Assembly (NCBI GenBank): GCA_001784435.1
Contig: MFQZ01000008.1
Location: forward strand, 23,347 to 87,346
Length of the DNA: 64,000 nt
Direction: 5' to 3'
Source of the DNA: Candidatus Magasanikbacteria bacterium RIFOXYC2_FULL_42_28
GTDB lineage: Bacteria; Patescibacteriota; Patescibacteriia; Magasanikbacterales; GWA2-37-8
Part shown: one piece after another, positions 3,724-33,540 of the stretch
Numbering within the stretch: position 1 is the first letter of the stretch
Layout of the letters: each line of letters starts with the position of its first letter
Notes under the pieces: model-generated
Told to the model about the DNA's origin: nothing
Seen by the model: the letters and a program-made list of their open reading frames with translations, nothing else
Databases searched by the model: none
Made by a program: the position numbers and the translations under genes

Positions 3724-3830
<107 letters not shown>

Positions 3831-3904: not shown

Positions 3905-6890
<2,986 letters not shown>

Positions 6891-13745: not shown

Positions 13746-13818
13746 GACCCTGTAGTTCAATGGATAGAACAATAGCCTTCTAAGCTGTGGATCTTGGTTC
13801 GATTCCAAGCGGGGTCAC
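13746..13818 (+). tRNA. tRNA-Arg (anticodon TCT)
   Basis: cloverleaf: acceptor GACCCTG/CGGGGTC, anticodon loop CTTCTAA, T-loop TTCGATT. Confidence 0.8.
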
Positions 13819-13990: not shown

Positions 13991-14063
13991 GGTGCCTATA
14001 GTGTAATGGTTAGCACGAGAGATTGTGGATCTCTCAGAATGGGTTCAAATCCCATTAGGCACC
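13991..14063 (+). tRNA. tRNA-His (anticodon GTG) with the extra 5' G(-1)
   Basis: G-1 pairs with C73; acceptor GTGCCTA/TAGGCAC; anticodon loop TTGTGGA; T-loop TTCAAAT. Confidence 0.8.
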
Positions 14064-15734
14064 CCAAACGGTATCTAATATAACCGAGTTCGGTTGATTG
14101 GATATCATTGCAGGAATCTCGGCAATTTGTCGGGATTTTTGCGTTTTAGGGGCAATCTTGGATTTTGATTTGCCAGCTATGAATGGTGTGAATTCTACGG
14201 CCAAGTCGGTTATTATTCTCGGACCGGTAATTTCTTTGTATTTCTTGGTAAAAACCATATCCTCAGCTTGCATCAGTCCTCTTATGATCGGTGATGGTAT
14301 TACGGTTTGGATTTTTTTGTCGGCTACCTCAAATCTTTCCCAGTAAAGCCCAAGGAATAATCGTTTCATTTCGTCCGGAGATTTAGTATAGGCTTCGTAA
14401 GCGTTGCGGACAAACAAGAGCATATCTTGCAGTTCATCGATCCTCATATTGAGTTTTTTATCTTGGACGTACAGTTCGTCTTGCAACAGCCCAAGCTGTT
14501 CTTTAATTTTCACTTTTATTCTGGTGAAGTCGTCATCGGTAATAAGTCCGGCAAATAGTTTTTCCTCGGCGGTGTCCCGTTTCTTTTCAAACATCATCTT
14601 TTGAGTATTCAAGCCTCGTTTGTCTTTATTGATCACTTCTTTGCGACCGCTGTAAATCTTTTCAATCTTGGTCACCAGTCTGTCGGTAAAATTGGGAGTA
14701 AATTCTATATACTTGAACAAGTTAGCAACTTGCTGTTCTATATCCCAGACTTCCACATATTTGTCTTGGCATTTAATCTGATCGCCAGACCGGTTGCAGT
14801 GATAATATGATTTATTTTTCTTAGGATGATGTTCGGCGGTGTATCTTTGTCCGCAGTTGGCACAAAAGGTTAGACCTCGCAGAATGAAATTGAATTTTTG
14901 CCGTCGGCAGGCATATCTATTGTGTTCGGCCATAACCAACTGGACTCGTTCCCACAAATCTTTATCTATAAGTGGTTTATGTTTTCCGGTGTTAACTAAT
15001 CCTCGCCACCTCATCTCACCATAATAAAAAGGATTTTTTAGTATCTCGATCATCTTACTGTGAGCCAATCGTTTATCGGCGTGTGTTCTAAAACCTTTTT
15101 TGTATAAAGCATCGCGAACTTCAAAGACTGAATAATCGCCAGTCACATACATTTTGAATGCTTCTTGAATAAGCGGTGCCCGTTCCTCATCTACAATAAT
15201 AATTCTTTTTTTCTCATCGTCCGGCTCGCCAGCATTTAAATAGCCGACAGCCACACCGGTCGGCCACCAACCCTCCCAGAATTTTAGCTCAAGACTTTTC
15301 AAAGTTTTTCTCGAAGTGATTTGGGATTGGAGTTGGTTCACACCGGCAATAACCAAGTCCATAAAGTTTCCCTCGGGGCTATCGGTAATGCCAGGTTGGG
15401 AGACAGAGAACAGTTCAACATCATGCTTTTTCATGATCGCTTTGATCTGCATGTGATCAAGAGCGTTTCTGGCTAGTCGGTCAGTGTCTTGAATAAAAAC
15501 CGCCCTGATTGTTTTGTCGTCTTGGATTTTAAGTAACATGTCTTGTAGACCGGGACGATTCATATTAGTGGCTGATCGTCCGGGGTCTTCAAAAACACCG
15601 TCATCTATCAGTTTGAATTTGTTACTTTCCTCGATCGCTCGTTTGCAGAGCTTGAGCTGAGTCGCAAGCGAGTGGTGGCCGTCCTCGGCCTGTTCCTCGG
15701 TTGAGACTCGGCAGTAAATTAATGCATGTTCCAT
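14055..15734 (-). CDS. large serine recombinase (integrase) of an integrated element; its 3' end overlaps the 3' end of tRNA-His
   Basis: N-terminal resolvase catalytic domain (ALIYCRVSTEEQ ... DRLARN), recombinase domain and Zn-ribbon-like C-terminus (CxxC...C) typical of large serine recombinases. Confidence 0.85.
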   Translation of the reverse strand: MEHALIYCRVSTEEQAEDGHHSLATQLKLCKRAIEESNKFKLIDDGVFEDPGRSATNMNRPGLQDMLLKIQDDKTIRAVFIQDTDRLARNALDHMQIKAIMKKHDVELFSVSQPGITDSPEGNFMDLVIAGVNQLQSQITSRKTLKSLELKFWEGWWPTGVAVGYLNAGEPDDEKKRIIIVDEERAPLIQEAFKMYVTGDYSVFEVRDALYKKGFRTHADKRLAHSKMIEILKNPFYYGEMRWRGLVNTGKHKPLIDKDLWERVQLVMAEHNRYACRRQKFNFILRGLTFCANCGQRYTAEHHPKKNKSYYHCNRSGDQIKCQDKYVEVWDIEQQVANLFKYIEFTPNFTDRLVTKIEKIYSGRKEVINKDKRGLNTQKMMFEKKRDTAEEKLFAGLITDDDFTRIKVKIKEQLGLLQDELYVQDKKLNMRIDELQDMLLFVRNAYEAYTKSPDEMKRLFLGLYWERFEVADKKIQTVIPSPIIRGLMQAEDMVFTKKYKEITGPRIITDLAVEFTPFIAGKSKSKIAPKTQKSRQIAEIPAMISNQPNSVILDTVWGA

Positions 15735-18512: not shown

Positions 18513-19415
18513 ATGGCTATAACAAAACCTATAAAAGACAGGCTTACAGCTCTAAAAAGCGAATATGACACCCTCCGCAAAGGCAAGGAGTCTCTTTTGG
18601 TGATGATTGACGAGGCCGAAGTGCCAGAAAGCGTCTATAACTCCAACGCTATTGAAAACTCCACCCTTACCCTCAAGGAAACTGAGAAGATCCTTTTGGA
18701 TATGGAGGTCTCCCGTGATGTTTCGTTGCGTGAAGTTTATGAGGCCAAAAACTTGGCTCGAGTTATCGGCTACATTCGCAACAAGAGTAAAGAAACGGAA
18801 ACTAACAAAGAGACAATCTTACTTTTGCATCAAATGCTTATCGGTGGCATCGACGACAAAATTGCCGGTCGTTTTAGAAAGCTCGGAGAATACGTCCGTG
18901 TTGGGACCCACGTTGCCCCAGCACCGGAACATGTTGAGAAAATGATTGAGGCAATCATCACTGAATACACCGGCGACCTCTCAAATTATTTCTTAGACAA
19001 GATCGCTAAATTCCATTTGGATTTTGAAACCGTTCACCCTTTCAACGATGGCAACGGCCGTATTGGTCGCGTGCTCATTTGTTTTCAGCTTCAGCGTCTT
19101 GGCTTTCCGATAATCATCATTCGTGATCGTGAAAAGAAAGAATACTATAAGTCATTTGCCGAATACCGTGATGAAAAAAACGCCAAAAATATGGAAAAGG
19201 TTATCGCCTTGGCTTTGATGGAATCATTGAGTAAGAGGATTACTTATCTCAAAGGTCAAAAGGTTATCACTTTGTCCGAGTATACAAAATTAAACAAACT
19301 ATCTGCCCCGGGCATGATTAACGCCGCTCGCCGTCAAAATATTCCGGCTTTCCGAGAGAAAGGTGTTTGGAAAATCGGCGAGGATTTTATTTATAACTCT
19401 CGCAAAGAAAAATAA
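18513..19415 (+). CDS. Fic-family protein (AMPylator/Doc-like)
   Basis: canonical Fic motif HPFNDGNGRIGR; TTGACT-18-TATACT promoter at 18460-18489. Confidence 0.8.
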   Translation: MAITKPIKDRLTALKSEYDTLRKGKESLLVMIDEAEVPESVYNSNAIENSTLTLKETEKILLDMEVSRDVSLREVYEAKNLARVIGYIRNKSKETETNKETILLLHQMLIGGIDDKIAGRFRKLGEYVRVGTHVAPAPEHVEKMIEAIITEYTGDLSNYFLDKIAKFHLDFETVHPFNDGNGRIGRVLICFQLQRLGFPIIIIRDREKKEYYKSFAEYRDEKNAKNMEKVIALALMESLSKRITYLKGQKVITLSEYTKLNKLSAPGMINAARRQNIPAFREKGVWKIGEDFIYNSRKEK

Positions 19416-19420: not shown

Positions 19421-21850
19421 ATGGCAATTAAAAAATCACAACTCTATAGCTCTATCTGGCAAGGATGCGACGAACTCCGTGGTGGTATGGATGCATCCCA
19501 GTATAAGGATTACGTCCTCGTGCTTTTGTTCGTTCGCTATGTCTCGGATAAATATGCCGGTAAGGCCAATCAGCTCGTAGACATTCCGGCTGGTGGCAGT
19601 TTTTCTGATTTGATAAAACTCAAAGGTAAACCGGATATCGGTGACGGGATCAATAAAGTTTTGAATAAGCTGGCCGAGGCCAATGGCTTGCAAGGTGTCA
19701 TCGATGCTGTTGATTTTAACGACGAAGACAAGCTTGGCAAAGGCAAGGACATGCAGGACCGCCTTTCCAATCTTATCGCTATCTTTGAAAATCCTGATTT
19801 AGATTTCAGCAAGAATCGTGCCGAAGGTGATGACCTCTTGGGCGATGCTTACGAATACTTGATGAAGCATTTCGCTGTTGAATCAGGAAAAAGCAAAGGA
19901 CAATTTTATACTCCGGCCGAAGTTTCTCGCATTATGGCCAAAGTGATTGAAGCTAACAAAGCCGACACCGGTATGCACACGGTTTACGATCCGACCTGCG
20001 GTTCCGGTTCACTTCTTTTGAAAGTCGCCGAGGAAGCTCAAAAAATTACAATCTACGGACAAGAGCTTGATAACGCTACTGCCGGACTCGCAACTCTTAA
20101 CATGTGGCTTCATGGCAAGCCCGAGGCTGAAATTAAGAAAGGTCAGAGCACGCTTTCTACTCCGCTTTTCACCGAACATAGTGCCCTCAAAACTTTTGAC
20201 TATGTCGTGGCCAATCCACCTTTTTCTTATAAGTCTTGGCGTAACGGCTTTGATCCTGATCACGATCAATACGGCCGTTTTGACGGCTTCGGTATTCCTC
20301 CCAAGAAAAATGGCGACTTCGCTTTTCTTTTGCATATTTTAAAGTCGCTCAAGAGTACTGGGACCGGTGCAGTCATTTTGCCTCATGGTGTTTTGTTCCG
20401 TGGCAATGCTGAAGCGGAAATTCGCAAAAATATTATTGAACGAGGATATATCAAAGGTATCATCGGCTTACCGGCCAACCTTTTCTACGGTACCGGCATT
20501 CCGGCGTGTATTATTGTTTTAGATAAAGCCGGAGCTAGTGATCGCAAAGGCATTTTTATGATTGATGCCTCCAAAGGTTTTGTTAAAGACGGTAATAAGA
20601 ATCGTTTGCGTGAGCAGGACATTCGCAAAATCGTGGACACTTGGAACGGCAAATTGGAAACCGCCAAGTTTTCTCGCTTTGTGGCCAATGAGGAGATAAA
20701 GAAAAACGAATATAACCTCAATCTCCCACGCTACATCGATACGCAAGAGCTGGAAGATATCCAAGACATCGAAGCACATCTCAAAGGTGGAATTCCTGAC
20801 GCTGACATTTCTGCTTTGTCCGCATATTGGGATATTTGCCCAACGCTTGAAAAATCTCTTTTCAAAGCCAATGGCCGAAAAGGATACAGCGAATTGCTTA
20901 TCGCTTCGGACGAAATAAAAAAGACTATTCTTACTCATCCGGAGTTTGAAGCTTTTAGAAAACAAACCCTGAATACTTTTGCCAAGTGGCAAAAAGCGTC
21001 AACTGATTTTCTCAAGAATATTGATACTGCCAATCATCCAAAAGCGGTCATTTATAAAATTGCCAGCGACCTGCTTTCAGCTTGTGCCAATCTCAAACTG
21101 GTTGATAAGTATGATATCTATCAGCACCTGATGGCTTATTGGGAAGAAGTGATGCAGGACGATACGCATATTATTACCATTGACGGCTGGAAAGCTGGCA
21201 AGGAAATAATCCGCTTACAAAAAGAAAATAAAGGCAAGAAAAAAGAGATTGAAGGACTTGTCGGTCTTGAAGGTCGCCTTATCCCGATCTCTTTGGCTAT
21301 CAAAACTTATTTTACCAAAGAGCAGAAAGCTCTTGATGATTTGAACGCTACCCTTGAACAGGTCGGCGTTGATATGGATTCGCTCAAAGACGAGCATGGC
21401 GGTGAGGAAGGCTTGCTCGAAGAAGTAATTGATAACGACAAAATCAGCAAGGCCAGTGTGCTTAAACGAATCAAAGAAATCAAAAACAGTGCGGACGATG
21501 TTGACGAGCTTGCTGTACTTGAAAAGTATTCAGCTTTGTTTGAAAAAGAAGCCGACACCAAGAAAGCGATCAAAGACGCCGAGAAAGACTTGGAGAAAAA
21601 AGTGCTGGTTAAATATCCGACTTTTACCGAAGCAGAAATCAAAACTTTGGTGGTTGAGAATAAATGGATGGACGAATTGTCTGCTCGAGTTTTAGGCGAA
21701 ATAGATCGTCTCTCCCAGACTCTCGCCGGCAGAGTTAAAGAATTAGCCGAGCGTTATGCCGAGCCAATGGCGGAAGTCACGAGCGAAGTGGAGACGCTTA
21801 CCAAAAAGGTTGAGGATCATCTCGCTAAGATGGGATTTAAGCTTAAATAA
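19421..21850 (+). CDS. hsdM: type I restriction-modification N6-adenine methyltransferase subunit with a roughly 300-aa coiled-coil C-terminal extension
   Basis: HsdM N-domain, AdoMet motif I (DPTCGSGSLL), motif IV NPPF; 809 aa. Confidence 0.9.
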   Translation: MAIKKSQLYSSIWQGCDELRGGMDASQYKDYVLVLLFVRYVSDKYAGKANQLVDIPAGGSFSDLIKLKGKPDIGDGINKVLNKLAEANGLQGVIDAVDFNDEDKLGKGKDMQDRLSNLIAIFENPDLDFSKNRAEGDDLLGDAYEYLMKHFAVESGKSKGQFYTPAEVSRIMAKVIEANKADTGMHTVYDPTCGSGSLLLKVAEEAQKITIYGQELDNATAGLATLNMWLHGKPEAEIKKGQSTLSTPLFTEHSALKTFDYVVANPPFSYKSWRNGFDPDHDQYGRFDGFGIPPKKNGDFAFLLHILKSLKSTGTGAVILPHGVLFRGNAEAEIRKNIIERGYIKGIIGLPANLFYGTGIPACIIVLDKAGASDRKGIFMIDASKGFVKDGNKNRLREQDIRKIVDTWNGKLETAKFSRFVANEEIKKNEYNLNLPRYIDTQELEDIQDIEAHLKGGIPDADISALSAYWDICPTLEKSLFKANGRKGYSELLIASDEIKKTILTHPEFEAFRKQTLNTFAKWQKASTDFLKNIDTANHPKAVIYKIASDLLSACANLKLVDKYDIYQHLMAYWEEVMQDDTHIITIDGWKAGKEIIRLQKENKGKKKEIEGLVGLEGRLIPISLAIKTYFTKEQKALDDLNATLEQVGVDMDSLKDEHGGEEGLLEEVIDNDKISKASVLKRIKEIKNSADDVDELAVLEKYSALFEKEADTKKAIKDAEKDLEKKVLVKYPTFTEAEIKTLVVENKWMDELSARVLGEIDRLSQTLAGRVKELAERYAEPMAEVTSEVETLTKKVEDHLAKMGFKLK

Positions 21851-21851
21851 T

Positions 21852-22604
21852 ATGGCAAATCTAACCACGAACGAAAAACAAATACTTGAGAAGCTATTCC
21901 AAATGAACGGTGGTTATGTTTTGAATTTCTCCGATAGGACTATGGGTGAATTTTTCAGGGATGATATTGGTATGGATATTTATAGTAAAAAGTATCTGTA
22001 CAGTAGTGGATCAAAGGCTAACCGTTTGAGAGGTTTGTGGTTGAATGGCGACGATAAAGTTGTCGGCAAGAGCGTTGTCAAGTTACTTGAATATGTTGAG
22101 AATCAAATCCTTATAGACAATCTTAAAAAGGAAGATTTTCCGGAGGACAGAATGAAAGCAGGCAAAAATGTTGCCGAGAGATTGTTGGGTAAAAAAACGG
22201 ATAAGAAAGAAAACAAGTCCGAAGCCACATTCAAAAACGGTAACATCAACATTCTTTTGCAGAAAGATATTTTTGACCACGTACAAAAACTTTTAAATGA
22301 CGGGCATTGTTTTAATGCTGTTGAGGAGGCTTACAAGGTTGTTAGAAAAAAATTGAAGGATGTTTCCGGCAAAGAAAAAGCGACTGACGCTTTTAGTGCC
22401 ACAAATTACGACAAGATTTTTGGTCACCAGCCTGTTGATGACGCAGAAAAAGACTTTTTCGAAGGTATTAAGTTTTTGCATATGGCCATCCAATTTTTGA
22501 GAAACGAGAAAGCCCACACACCAGCTCGTGATTTAGATAAGAATTTGGCTATCCATTACATCTCCCTAGCCAGCTTGGCCTACGATCTGATTAACAGGAA
22601 ATAA
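21852..22604 (+). CDS. RM-associated HEPN-like protein inserted between hsdM and hsdS
   Basis: C-terminal Rx4H motif (LRNEKAHT) in a predicted helical domain; ATG immediately after the hsdM stop. Confidence 0.45.
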   Translation: MANLTTNEKQILEKLFQMNGGYVLNFSDRTMGEFFRDDIGMDIYSKKYLYSSGSKANRLRGLWLNGDDKVVGKSVVKLLEYVENQILIDNLKKEDFPEDRMKAGKNVAERLLGKKTDKKENKSEATFKNGNINILLQKDIFDHVQKLLNDGHCFNAVEEAYKVVRKKLKDVSGKEKATDAFSATNYDKIFGHQPVDDAEKDFFEGIKFLHMAIQFLRNEKAHTPARDLDKNLAIHYISLASLAYDLINRK

Positions 22605-22605: not shown

Positions 22606-23802
22606 ATGACAACAACTACACAAAAAATTCCATCAGGATATAAACAAACCGAGATCGGTGTGATTCCGGCCGATTGGGATGTCAAAAATTTAGGTAATGT
22701 TTGTGAAAAAATAACCACCGGAAAACTTAACGCCAATGCAATGGTTGAAGGTGGTGAGTATCGTTTTTATACGTGTGCCAAAGATTATTATCGAATAAAT
22801 CGTTATGCTTTTGATACTGAGGCACTGTTAGTTTCTGGTAATGGTGCAAATGTTGGATATGTACATTACTACAAAGGGAAATTTAATGCTTACCAAAGAA
22901 CGTATGTGCTATCTGATTTTTCAGCAGACATCCAATATATAAAATTATTTTTGGATAGAAATTTACAGGAAAGAATAAGAGTAGAAGTTAATGCAGGCAA
23001 TACCCCATATATCACAATGGGTACACTTACGGAAATGCAACTTGCAGTTCCTCCATTCAAAACTGAACAAACTGCAATTGCGACCACCATCTCCGATATA
23101 GGTATGTTGGTTGAAAAGTTTGAAAAATTAATTGGAAAGAAAAAGAATATCAAACAGGGTGTAATGCAGGAACTTCTTACTAAGAAGCGACGCCTTTCGG
23201 GATTTTCTAGTAAGTGGGAAACGAAAACCTTGGGTGATTTAGTTGATGTAAAAGACGGTACGCACCAAACACCAAGATATGTTGATGAGGGCGTACCTTT
23301 TTATAGTGTTGAAAGCGTTACCAGCAATGATTTTGAAAATACTAAATATATTAGTGAAACCGAACATAGACTATTAACCAAAAATTTCCGAATAGAAAAG
23401 GGTGATATTTTAATGACAAGAATCGGGTCTATTGGAGATTGCAAATTGATTACATGGGAACCGAATGCCAGTTTTTATGTGAGCTTGGCTTTGCTAAAAC
23501 CCAAAGATAAAAAGACCTCTCTTTATATCTACCATTTTTCTAAGACAGATTTCTTTAAAAAAGAATTAGAGGATAGATCCTTGCAATGGGCTGTGCCTAA
23601 AAAAATTAATCTCGGCGAGATTTCCAAAGTAAAAATTTATCTCCCAGTTGATCCTGAAGAACAAACCGCTATCGCCACTGTCTTGTCAGATATGGACACA
23701 GAAATTGAAAAACTGGAATCGCAACTTACCAAATACCAAAATATTAAACAAGGAATGATGCAAACACTTTTAACAGGCAAAATAAGATTACTTACAAAAT
23801 AA
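22606..23802 (+). CDS. hsdS: type I RM specificity subunit with two target-recognition domains
   Basis: central and C-terminal conserved repeats (QGVMQELLTKKRRL / QGMMQTLLTGKIRL). Confidence 0.85.
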   Translation: MTTTTQKIPSGYKQTEIGVIPADWDVKNLGNVCEKITTGKLNANAMVEGGEYRFYTCAKDYYRINRYAFDTEALLVSGNGANVGYVHYYKGKFNAYQRTYVLSDFSADIQYIKLFLDRNLQERIRVEVNAGNTPYITMGTLTEMQLAVPPFKTEQTAIATTISDIGMLVEKFEKLIGKKKNIKQGVMQELLTKKRRLSGFSSKWETKTLGDLVDVKDGTHQTPRYVDEGVPFYSVESVTSNDFENTKYISETEHRLLTKNFRIEKGDILMTRIGSIGDCKLITWEPNASFYVSLALLKPKDKKTSLYIYHFSKTDFFKKELEDRSLQWAVPKKINLGEISKVKIYLPVDPEEQTAIATVLSDMDTEIEKLESQLTKYQNIKQGMMQTLLTGKIRLLTK

Positions 23803-23806: not shown

Positions 23807-26800
23807 ATGGAAACACTAAACACAACTAAAGTCGGCCAGCTGGAACGCAAAACGCAAGATCGTATTGTGGCTTTGTTTCGTGATCGGCTTGGCTATGATT
23901 ATCTCGGCAACTTTGAAGAGCGAGAGGAAAACAACAATGTTGAAGAGGTCTATTTGCGCTCTTTTCTTTTGCGTTCCGGACACAGCGAAACTTTGATCAG
24001 CAAAGCCATTGAGAAGTTAAAGAAATGCACCAATCGTCCGCAGATGAGCTTGTATGATCTGAATAAAGAAACTTACAGCTTGCTTCGCTACAGTGCCAAA
24101 GAACGAGAGAAATTGGGAGAGCACAAGCAGGATGTTGAATTCATTGACTGGGAACATCCGGAGAATAATCATTTTGCGATTGCCGAGGAAGTGACGATCA
24201 AAGGCAACCGTACCAAACGGCCGGATATCGTGCTGTATGTAAACGGCATTGCTGTCGGTGTGATTGAACTCAAGCGAAGCATTGTTTCCGTGTCCGAAGG
24301 CATTCGCCAAAACATTGGCAATCAAAAAGAAGAATTTATCAAAACATTTTTCGGTACGATTCAGTTAGTTATGGCTGGTAATGACACTGAAGGTTTGCGT
24401 TATGGCACGACCGAAACTCCCGAACAACATTATTTGTCTTGGAAAGAGACAGGTCTCGGCAGTGAGTCCAGATTGGACCGAGCTATTTTGCAGATTTGCG
24501 ATAAGAAGCGTTTATTGGAAATTATCCACGACTTTATTGTTTTTGATAGCGGTATAAAAAAGACTTGCCGACATAATCAGTATTTTGGCGTTAAGGCCGC
24601 TCAGGATTATGTCAATCGTCACGAGGGTGGAATTGTTTGGCATACGCAAGGTAGTGGCAAGAGTTTGACGATGGTCTGGCTGGCTAAATGGATTCGCGAG
24701 AATATCAACGATGCTCGGGTGCTTTTACTTACCGACCGCACCGAACTTGATCAGCAAATCAAACAGGTTTTTGACGGCGTGAACGAAGAAATATATCGAG
24801 CACCAAGTGCCAGAGATTTATTGGACGAATTAAACAAAAAAGATAAGTGGTTGCTTTGTTCGCTCGTGCATAAATTTGGCCGAGTAAACGGGACCGGCGA
24901 GCTTGATGTTGATGACTATCTTTCAGAGATAAAGAAAAACTTGCCGAAGGACTTTTCTGCCAAAGGCAATTTGTTTGTGTTTGTGGATGAATGTCATCGC
25001 TCTCATACCGGCAAACTGCACGAAGCGATGAAGGAACTTTTGCCAACGGCAACATTCCTTGGCTTTACCGGCACTCCGCTTCTCAAGGTTGATAAATCAA
25101 ACAGCATCGGGGCGTTTGGACCGTATATCCATACTTATAAATATAACGAGGCCGTGGCCGACAAGGTGGTTTTGGATTTACGTTATGAAGCTCGCCGAGT
25201 TGATCAAAGTATCAGCTCCCAAGATAAGATCGACGAATGGTTTGAAGAACGCACCCAAGGGCTTACTGATGTCGCCAAAGCAGAACTCAAGCGACGTTGG
25301 GGTACGATGCAAAGTTTGCTCTCATCTCGATCACGACTGGAGAAAGTGGTTTTTGATATCTTAGATGACTTCTACAAAAAGGATCGCTTAGCCAGTGGTC
25401 GTGGCAATGCCATGCTCGTGGCCAGCAGTATCTATGAAGCTTGTCAGTATTATGAAATTTTCCAGACGATGGGCTTTACCAAGTGTGCCGTGGTGACTTC
25501 TTACGAACCCGGTGCTTTGTCTACCGATACTCGCGAATATGCGGTTTATCAGAAAATGTTAAACGGCAAGAGCACGGAAGATTTTGAGAAAGAAATCAAA
25601 AAGAAATTCATTGAAACTCCGGGTCAAATGCAACTGCTGATTGTGGTGGACAAACTTTTGACTGGTTTTGACGCACCGCCAGCTACTTATCTCTACATTG
25701 ATAAGAATATGCAGGATCACGGCTTGTTCCAAGCGATTTGTCGTGTGAACCGATTGGATGGCGAAGATAAAGAGTACGGCTATATTGTGGACTATCGGGA
25801 CCTATTCAAAAAACTAGAGAAAGCTGTCGGCGATTATACTGCCGGTGCTCTTGAGGGTTTTGATAAGGAAGACGTGCTCGGGCTTTTGAAGGATCGCATG
25901 GATGAAGGCAAAAAGGATTTGGATGAGGCAATGGAAATTGTGAAGGCACTTTGCGAGCCAGTCTCTCCGCCGAAAGATTCAGCCATGTATATCCGCTACT
26001 TCTGCGGTGATGTTGAAAACCCTTACTCCCTCAAAGAAAATGAAATCAAGCGAGTAAAACTTTATAAATCTGTCAGTCATTTGCTTCGAGCTTATGCCGA
26101 CTTGGCCAACGATATGGCTGATGCTGGTTATACCAAAGATCAGGCACAAGCGATTGAGCGAGAAGTTAGACACTACGAACAAGTACGAATGGAAGTTAAA
26201 CTTGCCAGCGGTGATTACATTGATCTGAAGAAATACGAACCGGCAATGCGAGTTTTGATTGACCGTTATATTTCGGCTACCGAAAGCGAGAAGTTGTCGG
26301 CTTTTGACGATATGACTTTGGTGGACTTAATTGTGAAGAAAGGTGAAGACGCTTTGAATGACTTGCCAGACGCTATTAAGCAAAGTCAGGAAGCGGTTGC
26401 CGAAACAATTGAGAACAACGTCCGCAAGCTGATCATTGATGAGATGCCGACTAACCCGAAGTATTATTTGCGAATGTCCGAACTCTTGGATGAGCTGGTC
26501 AAGAAACGCAAACAGGCTGACGTTGAGTATAAGGAATATTTAAAGCAGATTGTGGCTTTGTCCAAGAAAGTTAAAAACCCAATGGACGAGTCTGTTGGTG
26601 CGGAAATAAATACCTCTACTAAGCGAGCGATTTATGACAATCTTGGTCAGGATGTAAATAAGGCCGTGGCGGTGCATGAAGCCGTGATCGCTTCGAGGCA
26701 AGCCGACTGGCGTGGCAATCGTTTGAAAGAACGAGCAATCAAGATTGAAATCAAAAACGCTTTGCCCGAAATCACAGACGAGGAATTGAAAAACCTTTTT

Positions 26801-26830
26801 GAGATTATCAAGAATCAAAATGAGTACTAA
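23807..26830 (+). CDS. hsdR: type I restriction enzyme R subunit (SF2 helicase plus nuclease)
   Basis: Walker A QGSGKS, DECH box (FVDECHRSH), 1007 aa. Confidence 0.9.
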   Translation: METLNTTKVGQLERKTQDRIVALFRDRLGYDYLGNFEEREENNNVEEVYLRSFLLRSGHSETLISKAIEKLKKCTNRPQMSLYDLNKETYSLLRYSAKEREKLGEHKQDVEFIDWEHPENNHFAIAEEVTIKGNRTKRPDIVLYVNGIAVGVIELKRSIVSVSEGIRQNIGNQKEEFIKTFFGTIQLVMAGNDTEGLRYGTTETPEQHYLSWKETGLGSESRLDRAILQICDKKRLLEIIHDFIVFDSGIKKTCRHNQYFGVKAAQDYVNRHEGGIVWHTQGSGKSLTMVWLAKWIRENINDARVLLLTDRTELDQQIKQVFDGVNEEIYRAPSARDLLDELNKKDKWLLCSLVHKFGRVNGTGELDVDDYLSEIKKNLPKDFSAKGNLFVFVDECHRSHTGKLHEAMKELLPTATFLGFTGTPLLKVDKSNSIGAFGPYIHTYKYNEAVADKVVLDLRYEARRVDQSISSQDKIDEWFEERTQGLTDVAKAELKRRWGTMQSLLSSRSRLEKVVFDILDDFYKKDRLASGRGNAMLVASSIYEACQYYEIFQTMGFTKCAVVTSYEPGALSTDTREYAVYQKMLNGKSTEDFEKEIKKKFIETPGQMQLLIVVDKLLTGFDAPPATYLYIDKNMQDHGLFQAICRVNRLDGEDKEYGYIVDYRDLFKKLEKAVGDYTAGALEGFDKEDVLGLLKDRMDEGKKDLDEAMEIVKALCEPVSPPKDSAMYIRYFCGDVENPYSLKENEIKRVKLYKSVSHLLRAYADLANDMADAGYTKDQAQAIEREVRHYEQVRMEVKLASGDYIDLKKYEPAMRVLIDRYISATESEKLSAFDDMTLVDLIVKKGEDALNDLPDAIKQSQEAVAETIENNVRKLIIDEMPTNPKYYLRMSELLDELVKKRKQADVEYKEYLKQIVALSKKVKNPMDESVGAEINTSTKRAIYDNLGQDVNKAVAVHEAVIASRQADWRGNRLKERAIKIEIKNALPEITDEELKNLFEIIKNQNEY

Positions 26831-27545
26831 TTCTTATCTACAACTTGGCAGTGTTGAAGCATTGGTCGTCCGCAAGCCGATCAAGAATTTGCATCTTTCG
26901 GTTTTGCCTCCCAACGGTTGGGTGCGTGTCACTGCACCAGCAAATATGAAAGACGACGCTATCCGTACGCTCTTGGCTTTGAGATTGCCATGGATCAAGA
27001 AACAGCAAGCCAAATTTACTGGCCAAGAAAGGCAAACCAAGCGTGATTATTCCTCCGGTGAAAGCCATTACTTTTTTGGTAAACGCTATCGCCTTGAAGT
27101 GGTTTATAAAGACGAGGCACCTGTTGTTACCTTGAAAGGAAAAAATAAGATTATTTTACAGGTTCGACCGAAAAGTCCGGCGATCAAACGCCGAGAAGTG
27201 ATGATGGATTGGTATCGCAAGGAGTTGCACACGGTCGTTGATGAATTGATTGCCAAGTGGCAAAAGAAAATGGGCGTAGAGGTTAAATTTTGGGGTATTA
27301 AGCAGATGAAGACTCGTTGGGGTACCTGCAATCACAAGCGAGCTCGAGTCTTGATAAACCTAGAGCTAGCCAAAAAGCCGATCGCTTGCGTGGAGTATGT
27401 CGTAGTCCACGAGCTTTTGCATTTGATTGAGAAAAAACACAGCGACAAATTTGTCGCCCTAATGGCAAAATACATTCCGAAATGGAAAGGCATAAAAGAG
27501 GAACTGAACAGTTTTATTTTGTCGTACGAGGAGTGGAAGTATTAG
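26820..27545 (+). CDS. YgjP/DUF45-type (M48-like) zinc metallopeptidase, a type commonly linked to hsdR
   Basis: HExxH motif (VVVHELLHLIE); start overlaps the hsdR stop. Confidence 0.6.
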   Translation: MSTNSYLQLGSVEALVVRKPIKNLHLSVLPPNGWVRVTAPANMKDDAIRTLLALRLPWIKKQQAKFTGQERQTKRDYSSGESHYFFGKRYRLEVVYKDEAPVVTLKGKNKIILQVRPKSPAIKRREVMMDWYRKELHTVVDELIAKWQKKMGVEVKFWGIKQMKTRWGTCNHKRARVLINLELAKKPIACVEYVVVHELLHLIEKKHSDKFVALMAKYIPKWKGIKEELNSFILSYEEWKY

Positions 27546-27616
27546 TCTTGACTAGTAAAAATAGGCTGTAATTTGCTATCGAAAAATTTTCGATAAACTG
27601 ATATAATTATTGTAGT

Positions 27617-28687
27617 ATGAAATCACAATCCTCAAAAATTAAAGTCGTTGATTTATTTTGTGGCATTGGTGGACTGACTCACGGTCTTATCAAGGAGGGT
27701 TTAGATGTGGTGGCAGGAATTGATAACGATTCAAGTTGTAAATTTGGTTATGAATACAACAACAAGGCTCAATTTATTGATAGCGACATTCTTAAGGTAA
27801 CACCTGATCAAATAAATAAATTATTTGGTACAAAAAAGGGCACAATACGTGTTCTTGCTGGTTGTGCCCCTTGCCAGCCATTTTCAAGATTGAATCTAAA
27901 AAAAGTCACCGAAAAACAACTTGAGCCACTGGGTAAATTTGCTCAACTTATTGCGACTGTTCAGCCAGACATTGTCTCAATGGAAAATGTTAGTGGTTTA
28001 GCTGACACAAATAAATACCCCGTCTTTGCTAAATTTATAAAGACTCTGGAGGATAACGGATATAAATATAAATATGAAGTGGTAGATGTCTCAGAATTTG
28101 GCGTACCTCAAAAACGAAAACGATTAGTTTTATTGGCCTCAAAGTTTGGTGAAATTGAATTGATAAAAAGAACTCACAAAGACAAGCGAGTTACTGTTCG
28201 TGATGTTATAAAACACCTTGAACCAATCAAAGATGGTCAAACAAGTAAAAAAGACCCTCTTCATAAGGCAAGAAAACTTGATCCAATAAATCTTGATCGA
28301 ATCAAGGCGACTCCACATAATGGCGGGAATTCAGAAAGTTGGAGTGAAGATTTAATGCTTGATTGCCACAAAAAAGCTTCAGGAAAGACTTATCGAAGTA
28401 CCGTTTATGGCCGAATGAGATGGGACGAACCAGCACCGACTATGACAACTCAATGCATAGGTTTAGGGAATGGTCGTTTTGGTCACCCAACACAAAATCG
28501 TGCTATAAGTTTAAGGGAGGCCGCAATATTTCAAACATTCCCTGAAAATTATAAATTTACCGAGTCCGAAGACTCTATGGTGGTTACTAAAGTGGCAAAG
28601 TTTATTGGAAACGCAGTACCAGTAAGGCTGGGATCAGTCATTGGCAAGAGTATCAAGAATCACCTCAAATATTATGAAAAACAATAA
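27617..28687 (+). CDS. DNA (cytosine-5) methyltransferase
   Basis: motif I DLFCGIGG, motif IV GCAPCQPFS, motif VI ENV (SMENV). Confidence 0.85.
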   Translation: MKSQSSKIKVVDLFCGIGGLTHGLIKEGLDVVAGIDNDSSCKFGYEYNNKAQFIDSDILKVTPDQINKLFGTKKGTIRVLAGCAPCQPFSRLNLKKVTEKQLEPLGKFAQLIATVQPDIVSMENVSGLADTNKYPVFAKFIKTLEDNGYKYKYEVVDVSEFGVPQKRKRLVLLASKFGEIELIKRTHKDKRVTVRDVIKHLEPIKDGQTSKKDPLHKARKLDPINLDRIKATPHNGGNSESWSEDLMLDCHKKASGKTYRSTVYGRMRWDEPAPTMTTQCIGLGNGRFGHPTQNRAISLREAAIFQTFPENYKFTESEDSMVVTKVAKFIGNAVPVRLGSVIGKSIKNHLKYYEKQ

Positions 28688-30347
28688 TGATAATTTCTCT
28701 TTTGAGATTTCACTGAGCGTTTTGAATCACTTAGGAAGAAATCTGTACAGAAGTTTTGCTACAGTTCTCGGAGAAGCAATCTCTAATGCATGGGATGCTG
28801 ACGCAAAAAATGTCTCAATCTATATCAACAAGAAAGGCAACAGCTTTTTTATCAAAGATGACGGAGTTGGTATGACAAGTGATGATTTTCAAAATAAGTT
28901 TTTGAAAATTGGATACTCAAAGAGAAAAGATGGCGGTTCTGCTTCTCCCAAGGGCAGACCTTATATAGGCAGGAAAGGTATCGGTAAATTAGCTTTGCTG
29001 TCTTGTGCGGACAAAATAACCGTTATATCAAAAACTAAATCCAGCAAGTACATTGGTGGTGTCATTGATAACTCCGGTTTAGACAAAGCAATAACAGAAG
29101 ATCTTACTCCCAAGGAGTATTCTCTTGGATCATGGACAGAAAGCACTTTTGCCACCCATACAAAAGATCATAAACATGGCACAATAATTTATTTTGAAGG
29201 TATCAAGGACGGTATACAAAACAGCTTAGAGTTTTTGAAAAAGATTGTTGCTTTGTATTTTCGTTTTTCACTTTTAGATAAAACATTCAATATCTTTATT
29301 GATGGCGAAAAAATCACACATGAATCCCTTAATGATCTTGCTGAAAAAACAGAGTTTTTATGGAAAATAAATGAACACAAGGATCCTTACGTTCAAAGTC
29401 TTGAAAAGAGATTTACTCCAGAAAAAAACGAGCAAAGAGACATCGTCCTTAAAGGTACTAAAGTGAAGGGGTTTATTGCGTCAGTTGAACGACCAAGAGA
29501 TCTTAAAATAATGACGACAGAGGAAAGAATCGGAATCGACCTTTTTGTAAATGGAAGATTGCGAGAAAGAGATATCCTCAAACATATACCAACATCTCGA
29601 GTGGCCGAGAATTATTTGTATGGACAGATTCACTTCAATGAGCTTGATAGTGGCGATGATATATTTACTAGTAGCCGAGAGGGTGTGGTTGCTGATGATC
29701 CAAAATATAAAAAGTTTCTAGATACTCTGCGAAAAAGTGTGATATTAAAAATTGTTGAGGATTGGGACAAATGGAGAATAGCCCACAGGAAGGATGGCGA
29801 TTCAGAAAACGAGAGAATGACCCCTCGAGATAGAAAATCAATGGAGTTATTTAATACCGTTTCCAAAGAATATACAGTTACAGGAAAATCAAAACATAAA
29901 AAGAAAATTGACACATGGGTTAATGATCTTGCTGATGACGCTCAATACAATTTTGGCTCTTATGCGGAATGTTTTGTATCAGAAAATTTAATCAGAAATT
30001 ATATTGGCGAAAAGAAAATAACCTTGTCAAAGGAAGCAAAAACAGAAATTGCGAAATGGAAAAAAGTAGAAACGGAGTCTAAAAATAAAGGCAATGTTAG
30101 TATTGGTATCCGCAAAAATAATAGTGATTTGAGCTATCTATCTATGAATGATCTCGCATACCTTGTAGATAAAGCAAAAGATCCAACTAAAGAGGCTTGT
30201 CTTGCGAGAGATGCAAACGAGTATAAGCCAATTCGAGACTCGCTTGCTCACACAGCACTTCTAACTGATGCGGCGAAAAAGAAGTTAACCTCGGTTTATG
30301 AAAATATCAAAGGCAGACTCATTACATTACTGTCTGGGAAGGCCTAA
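28674..30347 (+). CDS. GHKL-superfamily (HATPase_c, MORC/MutL-like) ATPase with a large C-terminal domain of unknown function; 14-nt overlap with the upstream m5C methyltransferase gene
   Basis: N-box EAISNAWDA, G1 box DDGVGM, G2-like GRKGIGKLAL. Confidence 0.6.
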   Translation: MKNNNDNFSFEISLSVLNHLGRNLYRSFATVLGEAISNAWDADAKNVSIYINKKGNSFFIKDDGVGMTSDDFQNKFLKIGYSKRKDGGSASPKGRPYIGRKGIGKLALLSCADKITVISKTKSSKYIGGVIDNSGLDKAITEDLTPKEYSLGSWTESTFATHTKDHKHGTIIYFEGIKDGIQNSLEFLKKIVALYFRFSLLDKTFNIFIDGEKITHESLNDLAEKTEFLWKINEHKDPYVQSLEKRFTPEKNEQRDIVLKGTKVKGFIASVERPRDLKIMTTEERIGIDLFVNGRLRERDILKHIPTSRVAENYLYGQIHFNELDSGDDIFTSSREGVVADDPKYKKFLDTLRKSVILKIVEDWDKWRIAHRKDGDSENERMTPRDRKSMELFNTVSKEYTVTGKSKHKKKIDTWVNDLADDAQYNFGSYAECFVSENLIRNYIGEKKITLSKEAKTEIAKWKKVETESKNKGNVSIGIRKNNSDLSYLSMNDLAYLVDKAKDPTKEACLARDANEYKPIRDSLAHTALLTDAAKKKLTSVYENIKGRLITLLSGKA

Positions 30348-30366
30348 CTAAAGTAAATATGGGTTA

Positions 30367-30546
30367 TGGCCAACGATAACGATCCAATCAAAGACGACCC
30401 AGATGAAGAAGCTCCGGACGAGGAAGTCGCTGAGCTTATGGAAACCCACGATCTTGATAAAGACACGGCCGAGCGTGTGCAGGAGATCATGGAAGATTTG
30501 GGTGTGGACGAAGATGACGCCGTTGAGATCGAGGAGAGTCTTTAGT
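30367..30546 (+). CDS. 59-aa highly acidic small protein (MANDNDPIKDDPDEEAPDEE...)
   Basis: ORF below the 60-aa track cutoff, found by reading the sequence; ATG at 30367, TAG at 30544. Confidence 0.3.
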
Positions 30547-31114
30547 TAAGCAATTATGACTCGGTGCAATTTGCTTAACTTTTCCGAAGTTAAGCAAATA
30601 GTTCTAGGCTCGCAAATTTCGTCAAACCGGTGGGCTATGGTCGCAAGATGTGTCAAAGGTCTATCCGGGGTGCAAAGCTCGCCATAAGGGCAGACAAGGG
30701 GCAACAACGTTTTACTTTTTGGCTAACAGGAGATCGTAGTTGTAAAACTTGGCAACTTTCTTGATGTTATTCATTTTTTCGCGTAAAGTAACCATATACT
30801 CTTTATCCTCGAGCACTGTTATAAGACCCGACAGTGCCTGACCCCGAATTTTTTCTTATGTTGCCAAATGTTGCCAAAAACCGCTATGTTAACGCCTTAT
30901 TTTGGTTGATGTTTTTTTCGGCGGCCGTCCATATGGCGGTCTTATTTTTTCTGACGATAATCAACAATAATTGGCAAATTATAAATTATTTTAATATCTT
31001 GGATTTTGATTTAATCGCGCCTAATTTTCCTGGACTAAATAACTTAACTTTAGCCACATTTACCGGTTTAATAATTTATCTTTTAATATTTTTCTTCGGC
31101 ACAAAAAAAAATAA

Positions 31115-31843
31115 CTAACGCACATCGGACAGATAACCTTTTTGTTTACCGCTAAAATAATAACATAGAAATTGAAAAAAATATTCCCACAGCCCTTTAA
31201 ACACGCTCCCCTTAAACCGCCGACCGGAAAAAGCCACCGCCGGCGTCGGTAAAAAAACTATTTTACCCAATTTATTAAGACGAAAACCCAAGTCCAAATC
31301 TTCCATTGCCTGTAAATTCGGGTTAAACCCGCCCACGCACTCATAAGTTTCTTTATAAACGGCAAAACTAAACCCGGAGATAAAATAATTACCAAACAAG
31401 CGCCAATAAAACCAATTCCACTTTGGCCAAAACCAATTAAAAAACCGGCCGCGCCAATCTAACAAATCATTAATCATCACCGCTCCGGTTACCGCCGGGG
31501 CATTTGTTTTTTTAAGAGCACCAACCATTGCCTCCACCCAATTCGGTGGCGCGATCGTGTCGGCATCGGTTGATAAAATAATTTGGCCTTGGGCGCTGTT
31601 AAACCCAGCCGCCCGCGCCGCTCCTCGGCCTTGCTGATGTTCTGAAATAATACGCAAATTTAAACGCGACTGAAAGCGCGTGGCGACGGCGACAGTTTTG
31701 TCCGTAGAATTATTATCCACCACAATCACTTCAAAAATATAACCGGTTTTTTGCGCAACTAAAAATTCCAAACAGTCAGAAATTTTTTCTTCTTCATTAA
31801 AAGCGGGTATTACTACGGAAATTAAATTATTATCTGGATTCAT
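31115..31843 (-). CDS. family 2 glycosyltransferase
   Basis: VVIPAFNEE...VVDNNSTD...DAD motifs. Confidence 0.7.
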   Translation of the reverse strand: MNPDNNLISVVIPAFNEEEKISDCLEFLVAQKTGYIFEVIVVDNNSTDKTVAVATRFQSRLNLRIISEHQQGRGAARAAGFNSAQGQIILSTDADTIAPPNWVEAMVGALKKTNAPAVTGAVMINDLLDWRGRFFNWFWPKWNWFYWRLFGNYFISGFSFAVYKETYECVGGFNPNLQAMEDLDLGFRLNKLGKIVFLPTPAVAFSGRRFKGSVFKGLWEYFFQFLCYYFSGKQKGYLSDVR

Positions 31844-31922
31844 ACCATTTAAAAATCCTTCCCAAAAATATTTTCGGAAGGATTTTAAATTATCACAAAA
31901 CTACTGTTTGGGTAAATGACGA

Positions 31923-32423
31923 TTATCTCCTGAGCAAATTCACTTCACCAACCGGCACTCCGGAAGCATCGCTGTCATAAATCGGCGCTTTTTCCAAATC
32001 ATAGCGACGGATCTGACCATCCCAATAATCGGTATAATCACCTTTGGCCAATTTAATCGCGAATAGCGTGATGGAATAAGCGCTTAAAATTATCGCCAGT
32101 CCAATTACCGCTTGAGTTAAAAGCGATTTGGCTTTAGTTACCTGCTCATCGTTACCCCCGGCCGTCATCCACAAAAATCCGGCGTAAAGAGTAAACACAA
32201 AAAACAACATTCCCAAAAATTCCAAAGCCACGCGGATGATATTGGCGACAATTTGGCGGGGGTCTTTGACATCGGCCGGAGTATAGCCAGCGCCAGTGCC
32301 GGCCGCGCCCAATTGGCCCACGATATCCGGTCCGTCTAAAGCGCTCGCTTGGCGAGCGGAAAACAATCCTACACCCAACATAACAACCAACGCCGAGATA
32401 ATTAAAAATTTTGTAAATTTCAT
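31923..32423 (-). CDS. T4SS-pilin-like (TrbC/VirB2-like) two-TM protein, paralog 1
   Basis: signal peptide; core YAGFLWMTAGGNDEQVTKAKSLLTQAVIGLAIIL; variable N-domain. Confidence 0.6.
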   Translation of the reverse strand: MKFTKFLIISALVVMLGVGLFSARQASALDGPDIVGQLGAAGTGAGYTPADVKDPRQIVANIIRVALEFLGMLFFVFTLYAGFLWMTAGGNDEQVTKAKSLLTQAVIGLAIILSAYSITLFAIKLAKGDYTDYWDGQIRRYDLEKAPIYDSDASGVPVGEVNLLRR

Positions 32424-32429
32424 AAATTA

Positions 32430-33023
32430 TTAATCTACCGGCATGCAACAAGTGCCGGGTATTTCTTCTTGAGTTGCAGGATCAACTTGGCAACTGACAC
32501 CGCCAACCAAAGCATCAAACCAATCTACTATATCTCCAAAATCAGAATTGCTTTCCGGCTGATAGGCCTCTCCGCCTAATGCCGTGCAATTACTTTGGTG
32601 AGTTGTGCCACCGGCTGTTGTCCATCCCGCTGATGTGCCGGTAACACTCGTGAAACGCAAAGTGACAAAAAACGTAATACTGAAAGCCGCCAAGGCAATA
32701 ATCATACCAATAACCGATGCTTTTAAAATATTCACGGCTTTGGTAATCTGCTCATCGTTACCCCCGGCCGTCATCCACAAAAACCCGGCGTAAACAGCCA
32801 AAGCAAAAAATATCATGCCCACAAGCGACAATGTAACGCTAATAATATACCCAATCCCGCTGGATAGTTGATTGGCTTCGTTGCCGATTTCGTAACCGGA
32901 ACCTTTGGCCACCCCCTCCAATGTGTTTTGCCCAAAATCAACTGCGTTGGCATGATTCAATGCTGGCGCGCCTAAAAGCAAAATGCCGACAAAGATACTC
33001 ACCAAAATAAATTTAAGTCTCAT
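32430..33023 (-). CDS. T4SS-pilin-like protein, paralog 2, with a Cys-containing C-terminal tail
   Basis: core YAGFLWMTAGGNDEQITKAVNIL; shares a 47-nt near-identical DNA tract with paralog 1. Confidence 0.6.
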   Translation of the reverse strand: MRLKFILVSIFVGILLLGAPALNHANAVDFGQNTLEGVAKGSGYEIGNEANQLSSGIGYIISVTLSLVGMIFFALAVYAGFLWMTAGGNDEQITKAVNILKASVIGMIIALAAFSITFFVTLRFTSVTGTSAGWTTAGGTTHQSNCTALGGEAYQPESNSDFGDIVDWFDALVGGVSCQVDPATQEEIPGTCCMPVD

Positions 33024-33042
33024 AAATTTTATTATCTATTTG

Positions 33043-33540
33043 TTACTCTGGGCAACTTTCACCAGCACGCCAAACCCCATCGCCATTTGCACAATCAGCT
33101 TTGCTGATACCGCCCACAACTGTATCTATACATTCTTCCACACCATCGGCATCTGTTAACACGCACTTACCCCCCCCGCCACCCCCACCCACCAACCTAT
33201 TCGTCACAAACGCCGTAATCGCATATGCCAAAAATACAATTGTGATGCCGATTAAGGCCGCTTCCAAGGTGTCTTTGGCTTTAGTAACTTTTTCGTCATT
33301 GCCTTGAGCGGTCATCCAACGAATGCCGGCGTAAACCGTTAAGATGAAAAATACCGTGCCAATTAAAGCCAAAATCGTGTTGATTACTAAACCGGTGGTG
33401 CTTTCAAGATTAGGTGTCAAGCCGGTTTTTCCGCCGATTTGACTCAATTTTGTGCCAGCGTCATTAATTGTCAAAGCACTTACACTTAAAGGCACAAGTA
33501 AAACTGTGGCTAAAATGATAGTAAAAAAAATCTTACGCAT
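33043..33540 (-). CDS. T4SS-pilin-like protein, paralog 3, with poly-Gly linker and Cys-rich C-terminus
   Basis: core YAGIRWMTAQGNDEKVTKAKDTL. Confidence 0.6.
   Translation of the reverse strand: MRKIFFTIILATVLLVPLSVSALTINDAGTKLSQIGGKTGLTPNLESTTGLVINTILALIGTVFFILTVYAGIRWMTAQGNDEKVTKAKDTLEAALIGITIVFLAYAITAFVTNRLVGGGGGGGKCVLTDADGVEECIDTVVGGISKADCANGDGVWRAGESCPE

Follow-up and report, generated by a model that had tools for sequence, protein, structure and literature searches.

What does a GHKL (Bergerat-fold) ATPase do when its gene overlaps that of a 5-methylcytosine (m5C) DNA methylase? The question is raised by a gene pair at positions 27617-30347 of a 64,000-nucleotide (nt) stretch of DNA from Candidatus Magasanikbacteria bacterium RIFOXYC2_FULL_42_28 (contig MFQZ01000008.1, positions 23,347 to 87,346). 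This whole stretch is called the window here, and all coordinates refer to it. In an earlier reading of the sequence, referred to as the original prediction, the pair had been proposed as a defence module lying right after a type I restriction-modification (R-M) system, and hsdM, hsdS, and hsdR genes were indeed found upstream. The family to which the pair belongs is best described as the chassis of the BbrUII/HgiDII restriction enzymes, i.e., a methylase plus a GHKL ATPase with an S5-type domain, in which the probable DNase has been replaced by a HEPN domain. As to function, we lean on balance towards an R-M-like mobile cassette in which unmethylated DNA would license the effector, an ATP-driven HEPN RNase. 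That GHKL ATPases take part in restriction has been predicted before (PMC2292703, PMC2441816, PMC3710099).

The first gene (27617-28687, + strand) encodes an m5C DNA methyltransferase of 356 amino acids (aa) from the M.HgiDII/M.BbrUII-like family. It matched PF00145 end to end (E 4e-58) and TIGR00675 with 140 bits, and its motifs I, IV (with PCQ), and VI (with ENV) read DLFCGIGG, GCAPCQPFS, and SMENVSG, respectively, in agreement with the original prediction. The second open reading frame (ORF) runs on the + strand from an ATG at 28674 to 30347 and encodes 557 aa. Since the methylase stop codon (28685-28687) lies past this ATG, the two frames overlap by 14 nt, as had also been predicted, and both proteins are probably co-translated. 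The window methylase was 46-52% identical to methylases paired with HEPN-type proteins, and its identity to methylases of BbrUII/HgiDII-type loci was 50% for a full member (locus L014) and 49% for a truncated copy (L015). The region between motifs VIII and IX, which is the seat of target recognition, is well conserved across both partner types. An adjacent m5C methylase of the M.HgiDII-like type, as found beside BbrUII/HgiDII enzymes, is therefore part of the window.

The 557-aa protein opens with a GHKL ATPase domain (approximately aa 1-200; 28674-29273, + strand), which confirmed the predicted Bergerat fold. PF13589 (HATPase_c_3) matched aa 27-125 with an E-value of 1e-21, and the complete motif set of the GHKL ATPase superfamily was found, namely EAISNAWDA (N-box), DDGVGM (G1), GRKGIGKLAL (G2), and the GT motif. 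Conservation was read from an alignment of 56 homologues, to which 29 divergent members (down to approximately 30% identity) were added later. E34, N38, D62, D63, G64, G66, G99-K105, G169, and T170 were invariant in the 56 homologues, and the invariance of all four motifs thus points to an ATP site under selection. A full-length AlphaFold model built from the 56 homologues reached a mean predicted local distance difference test (pLDDT) score of 80.6 and a predicted template modelling (pTM) score of 0.75. In this model, an alpha/beta region follows directly after the ATPase domain and spans aa 201-342 (29274-29699, + strand), which is supported as an S5/transducer-like domain by Foldseek and by the NF050001 profile. 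It holds the invariant motif DLFVNGRxRE, the FVNGR of which resembles the MutL motif. With Foldseek, the full model aligned over approximately 400 columns with the N and M domains of TRAP1, Hsp90, and GRP94 and with MORC2 (E 5e-13 to 1e-10). Because the alignments have this span, the first 340 residues or so are read as a GHKL ATPase to which an S5/transducer-type domain is joined, which is the same arrangement as in MutL, MORC, and Hsp90. The S5 transducer fold that the original prediction had suggested looking for was hence present. Its term MORC-like is a loose one; MORC2 ranked 36th among the fold matches, and the N and M domains of Hsp90/TRAP1 were slightly better. When the whole protein was searched against PDB sequences, weak matches to the Hsp90 N-domain were the only ones obtained. 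A helical linker without a family (approximately aa 343-419; 29700-29930, + strand) comes next, with long model helices at H343-370, H384-398, and H409-417.

By sequence, the closest family is that of the BbrUII/HgiDII enzymes (NF050001; SalI isoschizomers, GTCGAC), and not a histidine kinase or a chaperone, which the original prediction had named as the outcome that would speak against it. NF050001 matched aa 8-376 at profile positions 1-369 of 659 with 310 bits and an E-value of 3e-92. The score falls short of the curated cut-off of 550 bits because profile positions 370-659 are unmatched; true members reached 729-805 bits. One of them, L014 on a Halobaculum plasmid (801 bits), was 34% identical to the window protein over aa 8-353 and unrelated beyond. 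The N-terminal GHKL and S5-like region is homologous to that of BbrUII/HgiDII enzymes (34-37% identity over approximately 350 aa), and a partner methylase of the same family with approximately 50% identity, the methylase-first gene order, a frequent Vsr gene, and mobility are common to both. What differs is a C-terminal domain of approximately 290 aa, which is absent from the window protein (BLASTP found nothing past aa 353), and the window protein is approximately 100 aa shorter. In the same way, PADLOC matched the 557-aa protein with REase_II models only and in its front part, as NF050001 did, and PDLC03419, a PADLOC model that includes the C-terminus in the case of L014, leaves the C-terminus of the window protein unmatched. 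The statement of the original prediction that approximately 350 aa belong to no recognisable family was right with regards to Pfam, which gave only noise past aa 125 at E-values up to 10 (C-terminal 357 and 157 aa). It did not stand overall, as NF050001 covers aa 8-376 and structure prediction the rest. Judged by sequence and model together, the front of the protein is a GHKL and S5-type module of the paraMORC or BbrUII/HgiDII kind.

The remaining part (approximately aa 420-557; 29931-30347, + strand) very probably adopts a HEPN fold, as far as structure prediction and conservation can tell. The last 181 aa were modelled separately (pLDDT 73), and the model is all-helical. Its best 55 structural matches include about a dozen HEPN structures, among them TT1696, AF0298, HI0074, ST0689, HEPN-MNT toxins, YutE, SO_3166, and Csm6, and the predicted structure shows an up-down core of four helices in which helix 2 is separated from helix 3 by an insert. 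The third core helix (510-525) has the catalytic-type motif R521-D-S-L-A-H526-T at its end, which is where the Rx4-6H motif of HEPN domains is expected (PMC3710099), and R521-D-S-L-A-H526 was invariant in the 56 close and the 29 divergent members. E437, N438, and R441 were likewise invariant in this domain, and with members down to approximately 30% identity included, Y430, E437, N438, R441, L494, R521, and H526 were still without exception. The HEPN nucleases characterised so far are dimeric RNases, in which two Rx4-6H motifs are brought together, and none of them is known to be a DNase. Given that the C-terminus appears to be a HEPN domain, RNA cleavage is a likelier effector activity than DNA cleavage.

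Membership in the Ymh HEPN family (PF09509/TIGR02391) was considered and rejected. Pfam gave no match, and hhalign returned a probability of 0.7% and, with a larger alignment, 1.7%; the rejection rests on the fact that nothing except the Rx4H motif (R-[ND]-x-x-A-H-T) was aligned. The positive controls, i.e., a Ymh gene of the window itself and a fusion from Neisseria gonorrhoeae, were both detected. Only 3 homologues were found when the Ymh fragment of N. gonorrhoeae served as the query, and the PADLOC models of 2023 contained none that covers the C-terminal HEPN domain.

The exchange of the C-terminal domain is of interest with regards to what it replaced. For BbrUII/HgiDII-type enzymes, this part was described in 2008 as "unassigned to any known fold" (PMC2441816). 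We found sub-threshold Pfam matches to SduA_C (Shedu) and NucS_C and the pattern HPWLLDPSWE...D...DLK; a PDB sequence search with the BbrUII-type C-terminus gave no match. By sequence, it is probably a Shedu/NucS-like nuclease of the PD-(D/E)XK type. Both effector types can also occur side by side. Locus L041 (638-5644) holds a complete BbrUII-type operon (methylase, an R protein with 805 bits, and Vsr) and, divergent to it, an adjoining HEPN-type gene without a methylase of its own. In L024 (602-5662) and L101, the order is methylase, a GHKL paralogue of 624 aa, Vsr, and then the HEPN-type gene. For the C-terminus of the L024 paralogue, Pfam gives no family, and a suspected TIR-like domain was not supported by it. 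These three composite loci suggest that one methylation mark may serve two non-redundant effectors. At equal methylase divergence (median identity 53% and 52%), HEPN-type proteins showed a median identity of 61% and BbrUII-type proteins of 37%, a contrast that is biased because both locus sets were chosen by similarity to the query. BbrUII/HgiDII-family enzymes were also common on predicted viral or prophage contigs (L109, L179, and others among the IMG/VR loci L109-L180).

A chance arrangement of the two genes can be dismissed since they are found together in dozens of genomic contexts that have nothing else in common. More than 4,800 significant matches to the 557-aa protein were obtained. 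The best 120 of these measured 548-569 aa, with 97-100% query coverage and 66-99% identity, and came from Bacteroidota, Actinomycetota, Ignavibacteria, "Manganitrophus", and others; they are named "ATP-binding protein" at most, and the window protein itself was deposited as "DNA mismatch repair protein" (OGH88005.1). An exact-peptide-pattern scan of contigs with this single protein gave 3 loci and was superseded by alignment-based scans of metagenomes and viral sequences, of which the metagenome scan gave at least 583 confirmed loci. Members occur in bacteria of the candidate phyla radiation (CPR), Planctomycetota, Bacteroidota, Actinomycetota, the Nitrospirota-like "Manganitrophus", and Alphaproteobacteria. 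Linkage was counted in 88 family loci from metagenomes and IMG/VR, which were scanned with locally built hidden Markov models. Among the 70 loci with enough upstream sequence, the methylase was directly upstream on the same strand in 66, and the other four had a methylase nearby in a rearranged order, so that the co-occurrence across genomes called for by the original prediction is near-obligate. Of 76 loci, 48 had a Vsr gene as the direct downstream neighbour, and a further 17 had one at another place in the locus. The methylase and ATPase frames overlapped by 4-14 nt in all inspected loci. As in a type II R-M system, methyltransferase and effector are thus encoded and inherited together.

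The unit that moves can be delimited in the window. When a Candidatus Magasanikiibacteriota contig (L001) was compared with the window by blastn, 92% identity was found for 27532-30527 (+ strand) only, plus a 54-nt piece at 30569-30622; the flanks are unrelated, and 27532-30527 is therefore taken as the extent of the mobile cassette. In L001, the cassette adjoins two Dam-like methylases and an AlwI-type enzyme in place of the type I system. The same gene pair stands amid unrelated housekeeping flanks in Manganitrophus, Pirellulales, and several metagenome-assembled genomes, and a conjugative plasmid of Paracoccus as well as 8 IMG/VR contigs carry copies of the cassette.

Several parts of this picture have precedents. 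GHKL-containing putative restriction proteins beside m5C methylases have been catalogued since 2008, including R.NmeAIP with a C-terminal Hypoth_Ymh domain (PMC2441816), and Iyer et al., 2008, defined the paraMORC ATPases, which are encoded in R-M operons together with cytosine methylases and Vsr (PMC2292703). Anantharaman et al., 2013, recognised Ymh as a HEPN family that is fused to paraMORCs and proposed that the HEPN-paraMORC fusions of R-M neighbourhoods correspond in function to PrrC and RloC, which are anticodon nucleases (PMC3710099). These R.NmeAIP-type or paraMORC-Ymh fusions have the same architecture, gene order, and proposed logic of an RNase tied to R-M as the window family, and both possess an R-[ND]-x-x-A/Q-H motif. 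However, the window HEPN domain is not recognised by PF09509 and aligns to Ymh at the catalytic motif only. A decayed NmeAI-type locus of N. gonorrhoeae (L017, 2586-5551) still shows methylase, HATPase_c_3, Hypoth_Ymh, and Vsr in that order; here, the methylase and GHKL-Ymh genes are fragmented, and the Vsr ORF of 140 aa is uninterrupted. The sequence record of L017 bears the label plasmid, but with 2.17 Mb it has the size of a chromosome.

More distant comparisons are instructive as well. PrrC and RloC likewise fuse an NTPase to a C-terminal HEPN RNase that is tied to an R-M system and follow the logic of a latent suicide RNase (PMC3710099). They differ by an ABC/Rad50-like ATPase and a type I partner, whereas the window cassette combines GHKL with a single m5C methylase, and homology was not detected. 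With the MORC and paraMORC proteins, the family has in common the GHKL and S5 domains, the intact ATP motifs, the position beside cytosine methylases and Vsr, and the lateral mobility (PMC2292703). The superfamily II helicase and the separate endonuclease gene of the MORC systems (PMC2292703) are absent from the window cassette. Sacsin is a giant eukaryotic chaperone-like protein that differs by three repeats, a DnaJ domain, and the lack of a methylase partner, and all sequence links between it and the window family remained below threshold. Finally, "Ambrosia" (2025 preprint) contains an HATPase in an architecture different from that of the window family.

From this combination, we infer a methylation target, an activation by unmethylated DNA, an RNA substrate, and a defence phenotype. 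The methylase would mark the host DNA and thereby keep the ATPase-HEPN enzyme silent. GHKL ATPases dimerise via their N-termini upon ATP binding, and the GHKL-S5 module would accordingly bind ATP, dimerise, and engage unmethylated cognate DNA, be it that of an incoming phage or plasmid or the host chromosome after loss of the methylase. The dimerisation would arrange two HEPN domains into an active RNase, which may cut cellular or phage RNA (tRNA, rRNA, or mRNA). The outcome would be growth arrest or abortive infection, not the cleavage of invader DNA, and a loss of the cassette would unleash the enzyme and cause an addiction effect. Of the two modes that the original prediction had offered, a modification-protected module fits, whereas a modification-dependent one is at odds with the finding that all lineages seen have a dedicated methylase upstream, coupled in translation. 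A bolder version would see in the family a widespread R-M class that discriminates self from non-self by cytosine methylation of DNA and restricts via RNA, with an ATP-driven GHKL clamp that reads unmethylated sites and switches on a HEPN RNase of an unrecognised family; as a still bolder corollary, GHKL-S5-HEPN may be related, on the prokaryotic side, to sacsin, which combines an Hsp90-like ATPase with HEPN. This version is held tentatively, and we would sooner doubt than assert it.

With regards to the methylation target, GTCGAC is the reported methylation site of M.HgiDII (PMC5867850), and from the sequence of the window methylase, its target is plausibly GTCGAC or a closely related site. 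In the window, GTCGAC occurred 3 times compared with an expectation of 7.3±2.6, which is not significant. In the pooled HEPN-type loci L002-L108 (approximately 645 kb), it ranked 7th of 64 palindromes with an observed-to-expected ratio (O/E) of 0.63. As the BbrUII-type loci, which served as the positive control, were also without a signal of GTCGAC avoidance (rank 21), the palindrome-avoidance test was underpowered, and no conclusion was drawn from it. The most depleted 6-bp palindrome in the pooled HEPN-type loci was CTCGAG (O/E 0.43, with 71 observed and 167 expected), which has the TCGA core in common with GTCGAC.

Several observations weigh against a methylation-gated RNase. The nearest characterised relatives, the BbrUII/HgiDII enzymes, cut DNA, and the genes are arranged as in classical type II systems. 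GTCGAC avoidance gave no signal in the window or in the pooled loci. A weak point of the HEPN assignment is that Foldseek found nothing significant for the C-terminal model against PDB, the best match being 7bxo (E 0.56), a toxin-antitoxin complex that we take to be a HEPN-MNT pair. No sequence profile ties the C-terminal domain to a known HEPN family: Pfam at E-values up to 10 had no match there, the hhalign probability against the Ymh alignments was 1.7% at most, and phmmer, for which the last 181 aa were compared with 1.84 billion cluster representatives, gave 195 matches, all of this architecture or fragments of it, without a bridge family. A search of the window for a Vsr gene or its remnant found none, and the literature yielded no experimental work on any GHKL-HEPN protein.

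The most serious competitor to the RNase reading is a conventional, ATP-using type II restriction endonuclease that cuts unmethylated DNA at the site of the methylase, in which case the C-terminal helical domain would be an unusual DNase or merely an element for dimerisation or DNA binding. The homology of the N-terminal 370 aa to BbrUII/HgiDII enzymes, the identical methylase family, the classical M-R(-Vsr) layout with selfish mobility, and the PADLOC matches to REase_II models alone would all be expected of such an enzyme. However, the probable DNA-cutting domain of BbrUII/HgiDII is precisely what is missing here, and the replacement bears the Rx4H signature of RNases. The copy beside a complete BbrUII-type enzyme in L041 argues against redundancy, and the much lower divergence of HEPN-type proteins at equal methylase divergence points the same way, albeit from a biased sample. 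We therefore consider a conventional endonuclease unlikely, though worth keeping in mind. Less probable still, and in our estimation distinctly so, is a role mainly in addiction by post-segregational killing, with the methylase as antidote, the ATPase-HEPN protein as toxin that is freed when methylation lapses, and little or no phage defence. It would suit the near-obligate linkage of translationally coupled genes, the selfish mobility of the cassette, and the frequent occurrence of HEPN domains in toxins (PMC3710099), but a defence role is compatible with addiction, as classical R-M systems do both, and the cassette lies within R-M or defence clusters in two different genomes.

A third account turns on Vsr. 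MutL stimulates Vsr in E. coli, and the 557-aa protein might accordingly be a MutL-like accessory of very-short-patch repair that aids Vsr at T:G mismatches arising from the deamination of 5-methylcytosine made by the neighbouring methylase, and would then be neither immune nor toxic in function. Its GHKL and S5 module is MutL-like, public records call it a DNA mismatch repair protein, Vsr is the direct downstream neighbour in the majority of loci counted above, and the analogy to MutL/Vsr repair was noted before (PMC2292703). However, approximately one third of the loci, including the window, are without an adjacent Vsr, which goes with m5C methylases generally; the homologous BbrUII/HgiDII proteins are restriction enzymes, and an invariant HEPN catalytic motif has no place in such a pathway. 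This makes the repair role very improbable. The linkage to Vsr also bears on a Dnmt2-like role, in which the methylase would shield tRNA from the HEPN RNase: as Vsr implies 5-methylcytosine in DNA and the variable region of the methylase is of the M.HgiDII DNA methylase type, this was rejected. Structural and PDB sequence matches to Hsp90, TRAP1, and HtpG could finally suggest that the protein stands beside the methylase by accident and is a chaperone of the Hsp90 type or a histidine kinase in signalling. Neither a HisKA dimerisation and phosphoacceptor domain nor a chaperone C-terminal domain was found, the best sequence family is that of a restriction enzyme, and the methylase linkage is conserved across phyla; owing to these co-occurrence data, such a role is effectively refuted, and we give it next to no weight.

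The cassette ends carry a few further features, some of which are restricted to the closest relatives (L001 and L018-L021). The best promoter-like site (TCGAAA, 17 nt, TG-n-TATAAT; 27577-27607, + strand) scored 10 of 12 with an extended -10 element, and 10 nt separate its end from the start codon of the methylase; promoter-like sites are not enriched in this region. A perfect 19-bp palindrome, TATCGAAAA-A-TTTTCGATA (27577-27595), overlaps the promoter-like -35 element, is kept only in these closest relatives, and could by its sequence be an operator. Directly 3' of the ATPase-HEPN gene lies an extremely acidic ORF of 59 aa (MANDNDPIKDDPDEEAPDEE...; 30366-30545, + strand), which tblastn found in the same relatives only, with 83-100% identity, where it travels along with the cassette; on L018 and L019, a gene is called for it. 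From its sequence, the product could be a DNA mimic, a regulator, or unrelated. Downstream of it, a perfect 13-bp stem with a 5-nt loop (30569-30599, + strand; 87% conserved in L001) possibly marks the transcript end, though it is not a canonical terminator as it is without a T-tract.

Upstream, the type I system consists of hsdM (19421-21850), hsdS (22606-23802), and hsdR (23807-26830). Between hsdM and hsdS sits a Hypoth_Ymh/TIGR02391 (HEPN) gene (21756-22604, + strand), so that the island holds two R-M-linked HEPN proteins. The homologues of this Ymh protein measure approximately 250 aa with 76-93% identity, many of them from CPR bacteria, and its true start is for this reason probably some 32 codons downstream of the listed ATG. 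A Fic/DOC-family gene (18513-19415, + strand; PF02661, E 3e-19) lies immediately upstream of hsdM, and a neighbourhood of DOC, type I R-M, and HEPN has been described (PMC3710099). After hsdR follows a gene for a YgjP-like/SprT-like zinc metallopeptidase (26799-27545, + strand; E 6e-60); a SprT-like gene is also found 3' of the BbrUII-type pair on the Halobaculum plasmid. Further upstream, a large serine recombinase gene (14055-15734, - strand) abuts the genes of tRNA-Arg (13746-13818) and tRNA-His (13992-14066). This region is likely the integration point of the R-M island; an att-type repeat of the tRNA-His 3' end was not found within the window. Downstream of the cassette, a family-2 glycosyltransferase gene and three T4SS_pilin-like genes were annotated (31115-33540, - strand), and two of the latter have an 86-nt repeat in common (86% identity). 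The window also contains 23S rRNA (3917-6891, - strand) and 5S rRNA (3725-3831, - strand) genes; a 16S rRNA gene was not detected anywhere in it.

If the proposed mechanism holds true, two genes would join the epigenetic marking of self and non-self, as in R-M, to RNA-targeting abortive infection, as in PrrC, Cas13, and Csm6. The general idea is not new, but a methylation-gated RNase is a crisp and testable prediction. The exchange of effectors offers a clean natural experiment, in which the same chassis of methylase and GHKL-S5 is combined with different C-terminal ends, among them a HEPN domain and a probable nuclease of the Shedu/NucS-like type. There is an annotation gap as well, since an abundant and unusually conserved family is currently labelled "ATP-binding protein" or, wrongly, "DNA mismatch repair protein". 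Beyond the family itself, the finding bears on the role of GHKL/MORC-type ATPases in silencing and defence that are linked to DNA methylation.

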